A DNA stretch of 64,000 bases from Candidatus Eiseniibacteriota bacterium (GTDB taxonomy: Bacteria; Eisenbacteria; RBG-16-71-46): assembly GCA_038231135.1 (NCBI GenBank), contig JBBRLX010000007.1, positions 74,812 to 138,811 of the forward strand. Reading direction: 5' to 3'. Numbering within the stretch: the stretch's first letter is position 1; every line of letters begins with the position of its first letter. The notes under the pieces were generated by a model that saw only the letters and a list, made by a program, of their open reading frames with translations, did not search any database and was not told the origin of the DNA. The translations under genes and the position numbers were made by a program. This document shows, piece by piece, positions 268 to 4,814 of this stretch.

Positions 268-1281
<1,014 letters not shown>

Positions 1282-1320: not shown

Positions 1321-2340
1321 TCACCCCTGCCATGCCACCCCCCGCGTGCCGGCCTCGAGCGTGCCGATCACGTACACCGTTTCCCCGGCGTCGCGCAGCG
1401 ACCGCTCGACATCGGCGGCGCGGTCGGGACCGCACACGGCGATCATGCCGATGCCGAGATTGAACGCCTGCCGCGCATCGTCCTCGGGCACCGCCCCCGC
1501 CTGGACGAGCCAGCGGAACAGCGCCGGGCGCGGCCACGCCTGCGATCGGATCACCGCGCGCACGCCGGGCGGCAGCACGCGCGCCAGGTTGTCGCCGATG
1601 CCGCCGCCGGTCACGTGGGCGAGCGCGTGCAGGTCCGAGCGCTCGAGCACCGGCACGAGCGCCGGCCCGTACCAGCGATGCGGCGCGAGCAGCGCATTGC
1701 CGATCGAGACTCCCGCGCCCCCGGGCAGCGGGTCCTCGAGTGCATGCCGCGTGCCCTCGACGATGCGGCGCGCCAGCGAGAAGCCGTTGGTGTGGAGCCC
1801 GTCGGACGCGAGGCCCAGCACGACGTCGCCGGGTGCCGCCGCCCCGCCGTCGAGCACGCGGTCGACGGCCACGGTTCCGAGCATGCAGCCGGCGACGTCC
1901 ACCACCCCCGGCAGATACGTGTCCGGCAGCTCCGCGGTCTCGCCGCCGAGCAGCACCGCGTCCACTTCGCGGCAGGCCCGCGCCAGCCCGTCGACCACCG
2001 CGCCCACCACCGCGGGATCCAGTTGCGCCTGCGCGATGTAGTCGAGGAACGCGAACGGCCGCGCGCCATGGACGAGCAGGTCGTTGGCGCCGTGCCGCAC
2101 CAGGTCCTGGGCGGCGTCGCCGACGCGCCCCTGGGCCAGCGCCACGTGCAGCTTGGTGCCGACGCCGTCGAGTGTCGCGGCGATCAGCCGCGACCCGCCC
2201 CCCGGCACGTCCAGCACGCCGGCGAATCCGCCGGGCAGGTCGCGCACCCCCCTGGTCCACGTGGAGCGCGCGGCGCCGACGATCGACTGCTTGAGCGGGG
2301 CCGCGCGCTCGACGTCGACCCCGGCGTCGCGATAGCGCAT
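1321..2340 (-). CDS. purM: Phosphoribosylformylglycinamidine cyclo-ligase (AIR synthase)
   Basis: YRDAGVD N-terminus, DGVGTK, FLDY, GGETAE, GLHTNGFSL, HVTGGG, FNLGIG. Confidence 0.95.
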   Translation of the reverse strand: MRYRDAGVDVERAAPLKQSIVGAARSTWTRGVRDLPGGFAGVLDVPGGGSRLIAATLDGVGTKLHVALAQGRVGDAAQDLVRHGANDLLVHGARPFAFLDYIAQAQLDPAVVGAVVDGLARACREVDAVLLGGETAELPDTYLPGVVDVAGCMLGTVAVDRVLDGGAAAPGDVVLGLASDGLHTNGFSLARRIVEGTRHALEDPLPGGAGVSIGNALLAPHRWYGPALVPVLERSDLHALAHVTGGGIGDNLARVLPPGVRAVIRSQAWPRPALFRWLVQAGAVPEDDARQAFNLGIGMIAVCGPDRAADVERSLRDAGETVYVIGTLEAGTRGVAWQG

Positions 2341-3662
2341 CAGCGGTGGATCCGCAGCGGGCGGACGCGAAGCTGCTGCAGGTCCTCACTGCTGGGACTG
2401 GGCACGAGCGGGAAGCGGCCGGCGACATGGAGCCGGAGCAGGCAGCGCACCACCTCGGGGTCGAACTGCGTGCCGGCGCCACGCTCCAGCTCGTCGAGCG
2501 CCTCGGACAGCTCGAGCGCGCGCCGGTACGGACGGTCGGAGGTCATGGCGTCGAACGCGTCCGAGACGTTGAGGATGCGCGCGCCGACCGGGACGTCCTC
2601 GGCGCGGAGCCCGTAGGGATAGCCCTTGCCGTCCGGACGTTCGTGGTGGGCGCGGATGATCTCGGACGACTTGTGCAGCGCGCGCACGCGCTTCACGATC
2701 TCGGCACCGGCGCCGGGGTGGCCGCGCAGCGTGCGCTGCTCCTCGTGCGACAGCGCGCCCGCCTTCTGGAGGATCACCTGGTGCTGCGGGCCGATCTTGC
2801 CGAGGTCGTGGACCAGCGCCGCGTACTCGATCTCCTCGACCTCGCCCTCGCGCAGCCCGAGTCCGCGCGCCAGCACCACGGCGTACTGGGCCACGCGCAT
2901 GGAATGGTGGCGGGTGTAGGGATCCACTTCCTCGAGCACCTCGGTGAGCGTGCGCACGAAGTCCTTGAGATCCGAGCGGATCTCGACGTACTGGCGGAAC
3001 GCGTGGCGGGCGACCCAGAACGGCACCGCGAACAGCACGAGCCCCCAGCGGCCCGAGCTGAACCAGGTGACGGTCGCGAGCGCGCCGAGCACGATGAACG
3101 AGCCATGGTGGAAGATGCCGTTCAGGTAGTTGCGCTCGAACACCCGCCCCGGACTCGGACCGTGGGCGATGCCGACGATCATCGACGCCAGCGTCGAATT
3201 GACCACGAAGTAGCTGACTCCCATCGCGAGCAGCGGCACGACCTGGCGGGACAGCGTGAACCCGGCGGCGCTGCCGCCGGCCGCACGCCACGCGAACCCC
3301 GCCGACAGCTGGGTGAGCACCGCGATCGCCATGTTGTGGGCCACGCGCACCGGCGACCGGCGCCGCACCAGCGCCTGGCCGGTGAACGTGCTCGCGAGGT
3401 CGACGAGCGCGGTCCACGCCGGCCCTAGGATGACGAGACACGGCAGATCGACGACGGCGCTGGCGGTGGCGTAGCCGCCGCCCGGCAACTCGACCGGCGT
3501 CAGCTCGTTGAGCAGCATGAGCAGGCCGGCGATCACGAGCACGGCGAGCGGCGGGCGGCCATCCCACGGCGCGAACCACAGCGCCGCGCCGGCCGCGAGC
3601 ACGACGCAGGTGTAGTAGGTGTAGAAGAGCCAGGGGCGCCGTGCGGCGAGCGTCTCGCTCAT
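2340..3662 (-). CDS. Multi-pass membrane HD-GYP domain phosphodiesterase
   Basis: About 230 aa hydrophobic N-terminal region with several TM segments; DPYTRHHS, HDLGKIG, HHERPDGKGYP, DAFDAMTSDRPYR. Confidence 0.92.
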   Translation of the reverse strand: MSETLAARRPWLFYTYYTCVVLAAGAALWFAPWDGRPPLAVLVIAGLLMLLNELTPVELPGGGYATASAVVDLPCLVILGPAWTALVDLASTFTGQALVRRRSPVRVAHNMAIAVLTQLSAGFAWRAAGGSAAGFTLSRQVVPLLAMGVSYFVVNSTLASMIVGIAHGPSPGRVFERNYLNGIFHHGSFIVLGALATVTWFSSGRWGLVLFAVPFWVARHAFRQYVEIRSDLKDFVRTLTEVLEEVDPYTRHHSMRVAQYAVVLARGLGLREGEVEEIEYAALVHDLGKIGPQHQVILQKAGALSHEEQRTLRGHPGAGAEIVKRVRALHKSSEIIRAHHERPDGKGYPYGLRAEDVPVGARILNVSDAFDAMTSDRPYRRALELSEALDELERGAGTQFDPEVVRCLLRLHVAGRFPLVPSPSSEDLQQLRVRPLRIHR

Positions 3663-3784
3663 GAACTCCGGCTCGGGATGGTGGGCTGTGGGATTGACAC
3701 GAGACCGACATCCGGTCGGAGGGCCGGTGTCGCTACGTCAAGAGTACTGCTCGTTGCGTATCTTCGAAACCAGGTAGCCTAACC

Positions 3785-3835
3785 CTACCAGCCGCCCTTA
3801 CCGAAGATATTGATCAGCTCCAGGATGAAGTCCAC
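3785..3835 (-). CDS. Small 16-aa peptide MDFILELINIFGKGGW (candidate signal peptide)
   Basis: GTG at 3835-3833, TAG at 3787-3785; AGGAGGT Shine-Dalgarno at 3850-3844 with 8-nt spacer; mostly G/C third positions; co-oriented with both neighbours. Confidence 0.75.
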   Translation of the reverse strand: MDFILELINIFGKGGW

Positions 3836-3949
3836 GAAACCCCACCTCCTTCAAGACAATTGCGTTGCGACCAGGGAGGAACGTATTCCTTACGAACGTT
3901 GGGTGGGATCCGCTTCGCTTTTCCGGATTTGATCGCTTCGCTTCGCCTC

Positions 3950-4765
3950 CTATGAAGATGTCGGTCTCAATACGTATTCGGTGGGTTCCTTGCCGGGCAA
4001 CCCACCCACAATCCGATTCAGCGCGGACAACGTGGCCAGCACCACGGCTTCCTGGGCATCTTGCTCCACCGCACAGGATCCGGCCAGCCTTTTCTGGGCC
4101 CGGTGGCCGAGCAACTCGACCACCACCAGCGCCACCTCGCCCCGGCCCACAGGCAGGATCTGTACCGAGTCGAGGCTGAACGCCACCTCGCCGTCCAGGA
4201 ACTCGAGCACGGTGGCGACCGTGGCCTGGGCCACGAGCTTGAGCGCACCATCGCGCGTGCCCCAGCCGGACGCGCTGCCCATGCGGGGCACGCCCTTCCA
4301 GCGCAGTTCCACTTGCGCCTGGGCGCGCCGGCCGGACACGTACAGGTTGACGCTCGAGAACCGGATCCGCTCGTCGGACTCCGCGTCGTCGGACTCCGCG
4401 TCGTGGGACTCCGCGTCGTGGGTCGTGGGCTCCTCGGTCACCTCGGGACGAATGTCCGTCTCATCCGTGGGACCGTTGTGCGGCGGCGCTGGAATCCCCT
4501 CGGGCGCCGGAACCGGCTCGGGGCCCGAGACACGGTCGGTGAACGCCACCGACACCACGCGAAAGTCGATCGGCCGCTGGAACCGCGTCAGCAGCAGCGT
4601 CTGGATGTCCCGCACGATCTGCTTCGCGGGGCGGCGGGACGACGAAACGACGTGGATTTCAGTGATGTCATCGCCCGCGGTCTGGATGTGGACGCCGTCG
4701 ATGTCGCGCAGCGAGCGAATCGCGGTTTCCGCGAGCGGGATCCAGGTGGAGTGTGTGGTATCCAA
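3950..4765 (-). CDS. Two-domain hypothetical protein (EIHV..KQIVRDI N-domain; acidic/Pro linker; C-domain ending AVVLATLSALNR)
   Basis: 271-aa ORF with globular composition, TTG start; C-terminal part resembles a LeuA-type allosteric fold by eye only. Confidence 0.8.
   Translation of the reverse strand: MDTTHSTWIPLAETAIRSLRDIDGVHIQTAGDDITEIHVVSSSRRPAKQIVRDIQTLLLTRFQRPIDFRVVSVAFTDRVSGPEPVPAPEGIPAPPHNGPTDETDIRPEVTEEPTTHDAESHDAESDDAESDERIRFSSVNLYVSGRRAQAQVELRWKGVPRMGSASGWGTRDGALKLVAQATVATVLEFLDGEVAFSLDSVQILPVGRGEVALVVVELLGHRAQKRLAGSCAVEQDAQEAVVLATLSALNRIVGGLPGKEPTEYVLRPTSS
4371..4422. repeat. 15-bp tandem repeat (about 3.5 copies) encoding (H/D)DAES in the linker
   Basis: tcgtcggactccgcg x2, tcgtgggactccgcg, partial tcgtggg. 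Confidence 0.9.
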
Positions 4766-4805
4766 TGGGCAGCCGGTCTCCAGGGGGGGGAGTTTTGGAG
4801 ACGCG

Positions 4806-4814
4806 ATTTTAGCA
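4806..4814 (-). promoter_or_regulatory. Extended -10 promoter element for the hypothetical/peptide/HD-GYP unit
   Basis: TGcTAAAAT on minus strand about 40 nt upstream of the 4765 start. Confidence 0.55.

Follow-up and report, generated by a model that had tools for sequence, protein, structure and literature searches.

What does a 16-codon gene that ends in a glycine- and tryptophan-rich motif do directly in front of the gene of a predicted membrane-bound HD-GYP phosphodiesterase? The question is raised by a locus of Candidatus Eiseniibacteriota, lying in a stretch of 64,000 nucleotides (nt; contig JBBRLX010000007.1) that is called the window below and in whose numbering the coordinates are given. 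The locus consists of a gene for an unnamed 271-aa protein, a structured RNA, the peptide gene enclosed by this RNA, and a gene for a receptor in which a MASE9-type sensor is joined to an HD-GYP domain. This four-part module is real and conserved. In the available part of Galperin and Chou (10.1101/2021.11.05.467447), MASE9 is described as a sensor whose ligand is unknown and is proposed to be bound within the membrane. We give a probability of about 55% to the reading that the Trp-ended core of the peptide is the ligand of MASE9 and that the RNA meters its supply.

The extended -10 element, the 271-aa open reading frame (ORF), the 16-codon ORF led by a ribosome-binding site (RBS) and the 440-aa HD-GYP ORF all lie where a preliminary description, made from the sequence alone, had placed them. 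It had overlooked the structured RNA of about 268 nt, with its covarying end-to-end helix, its helix opposing the Shine-Dalgarno (SD) sequence and its AGCG-N-AGCG motifs.

A conserved peptide gene

The 16-codon ORF is a real, conserved peptide gene:

3785..3835, minus strand: 16-codon peptide gene with GTG start, (M)DFILELINIFGKGGW-stop, with an acidic amphipathic leader and the core G-K-G-G-W (recurrence and coding-type conservation)
3844..3851, minus strand: SD sequence AAGGAGGT of the peptide gene, 8 nt before the GTG (sequence and RNA alignment)

Generally, an RBS-led ORF ending in [KRQ][AGSVN][GS]W-stop and followed by the receptor gene lies behind the 271-aa gene (29 of 30 relative loci, counting the own locus; L027, the single miss, is a contig end). 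Thus the scan of the homologous spacers bore out both the linkage of the three genes and the Gly/Trp-ended small ORF that the preliminary description had proposed. In a wider census of 64 rows, one of them a duplicate, the peptide is present in 60; of the remaining four rows, two are contig ends and two come from genomes that have the cassette elsewhere. Conservation is of the coding type. In the last five sense codons of 50 common-type peptides, the entropy is 1.08 at the third position vs 0.44 and 0.47 at the first and second, and the Trp codon TGG is invariant in these peptides, with all three stop codons in use. In an independent metagenome sample of 80 loci, 14 were too short to evaluate; all 66 others contain the peptide, and all 47 that are sufficiently long contain the receptor.

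The module is not confined to this lineage. The preliminary description mentioned, for other phyla, proteins with an EIHV..KQIVRD motif beside HD-GYP genes, and such neighbours do occur: of 80 distant loci 69 could be evaluated, an HD-GYP gene is no further than 1.5 kb away in 63 of these, and a small ORF is present too in 62 of the 63 (the sole miss is masked DNA, and the peptide picked at L078 is wrong). The distant loci span Bacillota, Armatimonadota, Actinomycetota, Sumerlaeota, Gemmatimonadota and others, and the same layout occurs in culturable hosts, at Desulfosporosinus, Geosporobacter and Thermosediminibacter loci. Peptides of distant phyla are basic-hydrophobic helices, mostly ending in LAGGA-x-aromatic-basic-W; those from Bacillota, Actinomycetota and Armatimonadota are basic, then hydrophobic, and 18-39 residues long. 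Armatimonadota-type peptides (L059, L063, L065; L034, L044, L048, L066, L089) have Pro-rich tails and up to 39 residues, and their loci hold a second, short HD-GYP gene.

No second peptide cassette was found in the own genome. A 358-nt contig from a soil metatranscriptome covers 3723-4081 with about 96% identity, the 16 codons unchanged and the stop TAG replaced by TAA; it was not used as support, because such a contig cannot show transcription or ends.

Core, leader and repeats

The window peptide has a net charge of -1 and consists of an amphipathic acidic helix, whose longest apolar run is 3 residues, followed by GKGGW; in this lineage the core reads G-[KR]-[AG]-G-W. The leader ranges from 3 residues (L019, MKMGKAGW, 8 codons) to more than 20, a 12-codon form exists too, and in several genomes W is followed by 1-5 further residues. 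Moreover, the core can be repeated. Four genomes of family f3 encode three DGK[AG]GW units each, and in family f13 one, two and three GGH[AT]WW-type units are found in genomes G110, G098 and G059, the single-core form being GGQSNWW. Families f3 and f13 are separated on the receptor tree, a quick one in which some branches are long, by members that have a single core, which puts the number of origins of the repeat at two or more. The conserved and repeated part is the polar Gly/Trp tail, not the leader helix, and a short core repeated behind one leader is a habit of processed or multivalent ligands, unexpected for a membrane anchor.

The repeated C-terminal core, together with leaders in ORFs of down to 8 codons, argues that the peptide is no membrane-spanning helix. 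At 16 residues, amphipathic and acidic, and with orthologues of 8 and 12 codons, it differs from spanning helices of the MgrB/SafA type. A double-glycine leader (GG, GA or GS before the core) is absent from the window peptide and family f1, which read F-G-K, L-G-K, F-T-K or F-S-K; GG precedes the core only in some other families (L129, L131, L134, L135). The basic n-region and hydrophobic h-region of a Sec-type precursor are likewise absent from the window peptide and are seen, by eye, in Bacillota-type peptides.

A structured RNA encloses the peptide gene

The following RNA features were located around the peptide gene:

3701..3968, minus strand: structured RNA element of about 268 nt enclosing the peptide gene (closing helix score at least 25 in 59 of 60 cassettes)
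3957..3968, minus strand: closing helix P1, 5' arm, within the last codons of the 271-aa gene (covariation)
3701..3712, minus strand: closing helix P1, 3' arm, 39 nt before the receptor start codon (pairs with 3968-3957)
3946..3950, minus strand: inner helix P2, 5' arm (pairs with 3722-3718)
3934..3942, minus strand: first AGCG-N-AGCG motif, a putative protein-binding site (the most invariant block of the RNA alignment; this doublet is the sole one in the genome)
3911..3919, minus strand: second AGCG-N-AGCG motif, directly before the anti-SD arm (RNA alignment)
3902..3910, minus strand: anti-SD arm, complementary to the peptide RBS (complementary helix score at least 13 in 50 of 60 cassettes)

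In an alignment of 26 cassettes, P1 is paired in 96.5% of the cells, two-sided changes are found in 5 of 12 pairs, and none of 500 shuffles scores as high. Slid-register controls give 31-45% paired cells, a lenient control because the structure was derived from the same 26 sequences. In L011, L013 and L014 the 5' arm lies outside the coding frame, therefore the pairing cannot be put down to constraint on the protein. The two arms have other sequences in distant phyla but still pair, and in 46 of 62 cassettes there the pairing is better than in 10 shuffles. This long-range helix, whose 5' arm reaches into the last codons of the 271-aa gene, is what remains of the hairpin-containing spacer noted before; the spacer alone (3660-3950) folds no better than its shuffles (z +0.84).

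Inside P1, the helix P2 has at least 4 pairs in 47 of 57 cassettes, with the covarying variants GGAG/CTCC, GGAC/GTCC and GGGC/GCCC, and the mean predicted SD accessibility of the peptide gene is 0.18. At least two AGCG copies are present in 61 of 62 distant cassettes vs 19% of random windows, and a T-rich tract follows the closing helix in 29 of the 62. No Rfam match was found in the cassettes of 10 distant loci, and in the window there is only a chance snoRNA match (E 0.34) outside the spacer.

A wider regulon of AGCG doublets was sought and is not claimed: 40 extra sites gave only cassettes of the known locus type, the reversed-pattern control scored often, and several sites are repeat-like doublets. 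In other genomes of the phylum, L207-L213, L217, L223 and L224 carry tandem repeats containing AGCGAAGCG where unrelated genes meet, in many cases over a start codon (ATGAGCGAAGCGAAG...). They look like repeat elements, and GCG-N-AGC is the sequence of a very stable DNA mini-hairpin. A raiA RNA (L094:1899-2208) and a T-box leader (L083:904-1100), both unrelated to the cassette, lie in flanks of distant loci.

The receptor

2340..3662, minus strand: 440-aa membrane protein with a MASE9-type domain (about 10-244) and an HD-GYP domain (238-404) (HD_5 E 7e-37, motifs, model pLDDT 94.6)

The output domain carries intact motifs, as defined by an HD dyad and HHExx[DN]GxGYP (10.1101/2021.11.05.467447): HD at 285-286 (HDLGK at 285), HHERPDGKGYP at 339-349 and DAFDAMTSDRPY at 368, with 127 bits to HD_5. 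The receptor is predicted to destroy cyclic di-GMP (c-di-GMP).

MASE9 had been only a guess for the membrane region, and at the family level it was a right one: PF20972 is matched at E<=0.01 by 76 of 94 orthologous domains, and the orthologues of G059 and G050 pass its cut-off. Features of the MASE9 type are present in the window protein as well, namely short elements at 56-79 in the model and the conserved N110, N155, N178, Y151 and F152. The sensor (window residues 1-245) was modelled with 94 sequences, at a predicted local distance difference test score (pLDDT) of 94.6, and compared with 48,161 chains. The top 15 VIA-align rows are all S-components belonging to energy-coupling factor (ECF) transporters, with Z from 14.7 to 8.2, the best being NikM (4m5c, Z 14.7, root-mean-square deviation (rmsd) 3.4, 187 residues) and RibU (5kbw, Z 14.3); unrelated rows stay at Z<=6, except MreD at 7.7. 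According to the tool's own warning, helical bundles need Z above about 13, which two rows clearly pass, and the case rests on the consistency of the list. Foldseek also puts S-components first, at probability 1.00 but E 0.02. The MASE9 domain is thus predicted to have the ECF S-component fold with a ligand pocket in the membrane. The first nine residues of NikM reach into its centre and fill what is the vitamin site of other S-components (PMC3945884, as far as its available text goes), a precedent for a polypeptide in such a pocket.

The cassette follows MASE9

The RNA-peptide cassette follows MASE9, and the 271-aa gene is separable from it. Genome G058 has an inserted gene between the 271-aa homologue and the cassette, which remains with the receptor; a similar insertion is found at L327. 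In two genomes a second receptor (L332, L333) has its own, different cassette, and directly upstream lies a gene of the DUF5317 type in place of the 271-aa gene. The HD-GYP locus of G050 (L130) has no cassette, and the cassette precedes a MASE9-HisKA-HATPase kinase gene (L155:7590-7780, G050:C3, minus strand) with its own promoter-like site, TTGACG-17-TATCCT; the sensor of this kinase falls into a separate kinase clade (support 99, quick tree). Conversely, in G090, G084 and G064 cassette and receptor are both lost and the 271-aa homologue abuts purM, and second copies of the 271-aa gene (L050, L092, L110) have no cassette.

When the kinase-type sensor was used as query, matches were obtained in 135 of the phylum's 151 genomes, counting G038; a few of the weak ones are the HD-GYP-linked domain. 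One such MASE9-HisKA-HATPase kinase is encoded in the own genome (L152:7615-9054; G000:C36:35614-37053, plus strand), just before rsgA and without an upstream cassette; the gene before it is presumably an enolase-superfamily dipeptide epimerase. Kinase fusions are not among the MASE9 architectures described in the available part of 10.1101/2021.11.05.467447. A third MASE9-like class of about 250-310 residues, apparently without a large output domain, is found at G119:C62, G097:C41, G077:C94, G151:C76, G008:C213, G034:C7, G017:C4 and others. At L101:5950-6300 (Eubacteriales) the cassette is intact and the receptor gene is a short HD-GYP-like remnant. The gene inserted in G058 lies between the cassette and a 271-aa homologue (L156:10111-10830) with an internal TGA in its matched region.

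The 271-aa protein

3950..4765, minus strand: 271-aa protein of an unnamed family, TTG start, with an alpha-beta-beta-alpha-beta N-domain, an acidic linker and a C-domain of the LeuA/citramalate-synthase regulatory type (homologues and predicted model)

The gene is present in 56 of 61 relative genomes (own genome and the unpublished genome G038 in the tally), and the family comprises 2594 cluster representatives at E<=0.001. No curated name was obtained in scans of the Pfam/NCBIfam type, the Atlas gave unnamed clusters only, and a sequence search of solved structures with the family gave no significant match. On the window protein, LeuA_dimer (PF08502) scores E 3.5e-4 and 20.9 bits, under its cut-off of 24.9. 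The fold model is that of a family member, P0171 (pLDDT 95), not of the window protein, and was searched whole, not by domain. In this predicted model the C-domain resembles 3f6g (Z 10.2, rmsd 2.9, 109 residues; Foldseek E 2e-7). The canonical Gly-Pro ligand loop occurs in 0 of 100 family rows, with a longer loop in its place. The best structural rows for the N-domain are cation diffusion facilitator (CDF) C-terminal and adenylation subdomains (Z<=8.6); the GxxG loop of KH-type RNA-binding domains is absent, E36, H38, K48, R52, D53, D67 and S72 are near-invariant, and the basic R45, K48 and R52 are conserved.

Possible roles of the 271-aa protein are reading of the RNA, binding of a metal or small ligand and partnership with the enzyme. 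Its proposed membership of the module stands as far as linkage goes and has to be loosened otherwise: of 4 further genomes with the gene, 3 have it on its own in front of purM, and elsewhere the cassette leaves it. Since it is separable from the cassette, it is the loosest member of the module.

Candidates for peptide processing

In 50 of the 80 distant loci (L031-L110) a DUF5317 gene comes after the receptor, and another lies at L332:2355-2936. DUF5317 has two invariant Asp with LspA-like spacing. Its comparison with LspA (peptidase A8) by hhalign was not significant (probability 0.4%, E 0.15, 34 columns, with an LspA profile of 6 rows), and an Atlas search with DUF5317 found only DUF5317 itself. 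Over 56 loci, DUF5317 and a LAGG-type peptide occur together in 41 and are both missing in 7, with 8 discordant loci, and related loci in this count are not independent. The peptides of phyla with DUF5317 carry a lipobox-like LAG-G that lacks Cys.

Proposed mechanism and alternative explanations

In the preferred reading, the amphipathic leader would bring the precursor to the membrane, where the core would be presented or cut free, a released diffusible form and a tethered one having about even odds. The core would then sit in the predicted S-component-type pocket and switch the fused HD-GYP domain, and hence c-di-GMP breakdown. The RNA would keep the peptide RBS closed by default and, either as a stable, end-paired small mRNA or as a gate for read-through, set the ratio of peptide to receptor; a protein that reads the AGCG repeats, possibly the 271-aa protein, would open it. 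Indirect support for the ligand reading comes from the predicted S-component fold, from the repetition of the core and from the cassette moving together with MASE9, and the three GGDEF-motif frames in the own genome agree with it.

Several observations weigh against this reading. The window sensor itself reaches only 12.8 bits with PF20972 (cut-off 24.3). S-components usually have vitamins or metals as ligands, and a fold in common does not establish a function. In G053 and G061 the cassette stands without an adjacent receptor, both genomes holding another MASE9 protein, and a strict scan of 50 other MASE9-kinase loci found 0 upstream cassettes, therefore MASE9 is not always paired with a peptide gene. 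No dedicated peptidase or exporter was found in the locus, and the 8-codon, leaderless orthologue of L019 would be hard to export. DUF5317 was not found in the 61 genomes of this group (G038 included), whose peptides are mostly without the LAGG motif.

The peptide might instead act only in cis, as a leader peptide: pausing at the Trp or stop codon, or translation as such, would remodel the RNA and gate read-through into the receptor gene, and the released peptide would be idle. An ORF enclosed by covarying RNA with a sequestered SD is what such a device would look like, and the T-rich tract after the closing helix in many distant cassettes, the ORF length that can drop to 8 codons and the position of the cassette, always upstream of the receptor gene where both exist, suit it as well. 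However, a nascent chain of 16-25 residues is still within the ribosome tunnel, and a hydrophobic or amphipathic N-terminal helix is nevertheless kept across phyla. Tandem cores, a W that is not always final and a cassette kept in G053 and G061 without a downstream receptor are equally unexpected for a cis-acting leader, and in the loci of this group where the 3' arm was located, some 48-91 nt separate it from the stop codon, which puts it beyond the footprint of a stalled ribosome. We consider this explanation rather unlikely. Improbable, in our estimate, is that the partner of the peptide is the cytoplasmic 271-aa protein, its LeuA-type domain binding the Trp-carboxylate and its N-domain the AGCG motifs in a feedback loop, with MASE9 sensing something else. 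This would need no export and so fits the 8-codon form, and in G053 and G061 the cassette stays behind the 271-aa gene on loss of the receptor. The C-domain has a predicted amino-acid-binding regulatory fold, though without the canonical Gly-Pro motif, and conserved basic residues are present in the N-domain, whose structural matches are not a clear RNA-binding fold. Moreover, the cassette leaves the 271-aa gene for MASE9 in G050, G058, L327, L332 and L333, and the gene occurs without a cassette in the three genomes and the three second copies mentioned above.

A further possibility, akin to the intramembrane modulator of the preliminary description, is a membrane-spanning small subunit of the MgrB/SafA type, packing on the receptor helices without any use of the pocket. 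Small membrane regulators of sensors are well known, and the basic-then-hydrophobic peptides of Bacillota, Actinomycetota and Armatimonadota would suit this role. In this lineage the idea is disfavoured by the acidic amphipathic leader with its short apolar run and by the 8- and 12-codon forms; moreover, what is conserved and repeated is the polar tail, not a helix. Overall we see only a slim chance for it. Very improbable is a unit resembling a type I toxin-antitoxin system, with an end-paired silent mRNA, a small hydrophobic peptide and an incidental receptor neighbour. Pairing of the 5' and 3' ends, a sequestered SD and a small hydrophobic product do recall type I toxin mRNAs, but the unit is single-copy and fixed among housekeeping genes in 56 of 61 genomes, its linkage to MASE9 is strict across phyla, and its peptides are non-spanning.

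The ligand reading can be extended, tentatively and with more doubt than confidence, to a multi-phylum form of peptide signalling. A structured small mRNA would give a Trp-ended core, in up to three copies per precursor, which would act on a receptor evolved from the ECF S-component fold and thereby on c-di-GMP hydrolysis and, via paralogues, on histidine kinases, with the 271-aa protein as a ligand-controlled AGCG reader. The orphan sensor MASE9 ranges from Thermotoga and Streptomyces to uncultured phyla, and the module offers for it a concrete candidate ligand of 4-6 residues, which can be synthesised, together with a pocket. If true, there would be a direct peptide input to c-di-GMP turnover, a receptor would have been made from the S-component fold of transporters, and an RNA motif of several phyla that Rfam does not contain would be added.

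Promoter and neighbouring genes

4806..4814, minus strand: extended -10 element TG-c-TAAAAT (TGnTAnnnT) before the 271-aa gene (sequence and conservation)

The whole module lies on the minus strand, flanked by a PfkB kinase/argS block and by purM. A scan for consensus promoters and terminators gave no match; the extended -10 element was accepted because it is conserved across loci, TGnTAnnnT preceding the gene of the 271-aa orthologue in 36 of the 38 loci that could be evaluated vs 2.1 expected from shuffles. This occurrence beyond chance supports the element as first described. Pfam and NCBIfam scans of the flanking genes found argS, PfkB, HD-GYP, PurM and a sigma54 regulator only. The last of these (268-1281, minus strand) is a 337-aa Sigma54-interaction/HTH_8 regulator with its N-terminal sensory domain nearly absent, directly downstream of purM.

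Comparison with known systems

A literature search, with subscription journals largely outside its coverage, found no description of the module. In two surveys of RNA motifs (PMC8632094, PMC6429828), HD-GYP and phosphodiesterase are absent from the main text, and the supplements could list the RNA. The closest described proteins are MASE9-HD-GYP proteins, such as TM1467 of T. maritima and HdgA of S. venezuelae, which share the membrane N-domain with a short intramembrane hairpin and the intact HD-GYP domain. The available parts of the papers on them (10.1101/2021.11.05.467447, PMC6205966) name no ligand, and "peptide" is absent from that of the first. According to the available text on HdgA, this one studied member gave no phenotype, and its authors suggest that activating signals were missing (PMC6205966). 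The fold and the kinase fusion of MASE9 appear to be additions of the present analysis.

ECF S-components (NikM 4M5C/4M58, CbiM, RibU, FolT, BioY) resemble the sensor in its predicted fold, and the extra N-terminal helix that NikM has is part of the match (model 10-205 on chain 9-214). However, identity is 11-14%, the module sensor is fused to a signalling enzyme, and the Met-His N-terminus of NikM is absent, the window protein starting with MSETL; no ECF T-component or ATPase genes were found beside the receptor in the window. The 271-aa protein has the predicted C-domain fold of the LeuA/citramalate synthase regulatory domain (3F6G and 3FIG, Z 10.2 and 8.3), while it differs in standing alone, in having another N-domain and a longer ligand loop, and in a Pfam score under the cut-off. 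Leader-peptide attenuators and the targets of TRAP, HutP and CsrA likewise have a small ORF in a folded leader, a sequestered SD or short, partly unpaired repeats. In the module, by contrast, AGCG occurs in 2-6 copies, runs of regulatory codons are absent, the helix joins the ends of an element of 200-370 nt, and no Rfam family matches.

The peptide itself is built like the precursors of pheromones (ComS/XIP, SHP, Phr/PapR, AimP, ComX-ComP, AgrD-AgrC), being short, with an aromatic core at the C-terminus behind a leader that is hydrophobic or amphipathic, and lying beside a presumed receptor. Unlike in those systems, the receptor is neither RRNPP nor a kinase of the AgrC/ComP type, the output is c-di-GMP, and the gene is wrapped in RNA; flanking-gene Pfam and NCBIfam scans found no RRNPP regulator, AgrB/AgrC, ComQ/ComP or C39 in the locus. 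Precursors with several cores, such as those of cyanobactin-type ribosomally synthesised and post-translationally modified peptides and of yeast alpha-factor, also place 2-3 short cores with short spacers behind a leader, as two lineages of the module do, although no modifying enzyme is present in the module locus and most members are single-core. In summary, the combination appears to be new: MASE9-HD-GYP proteins have already been described, no part of the module belongs to a known peptide-signalling family, and its logic resembles that of pheromone systems.

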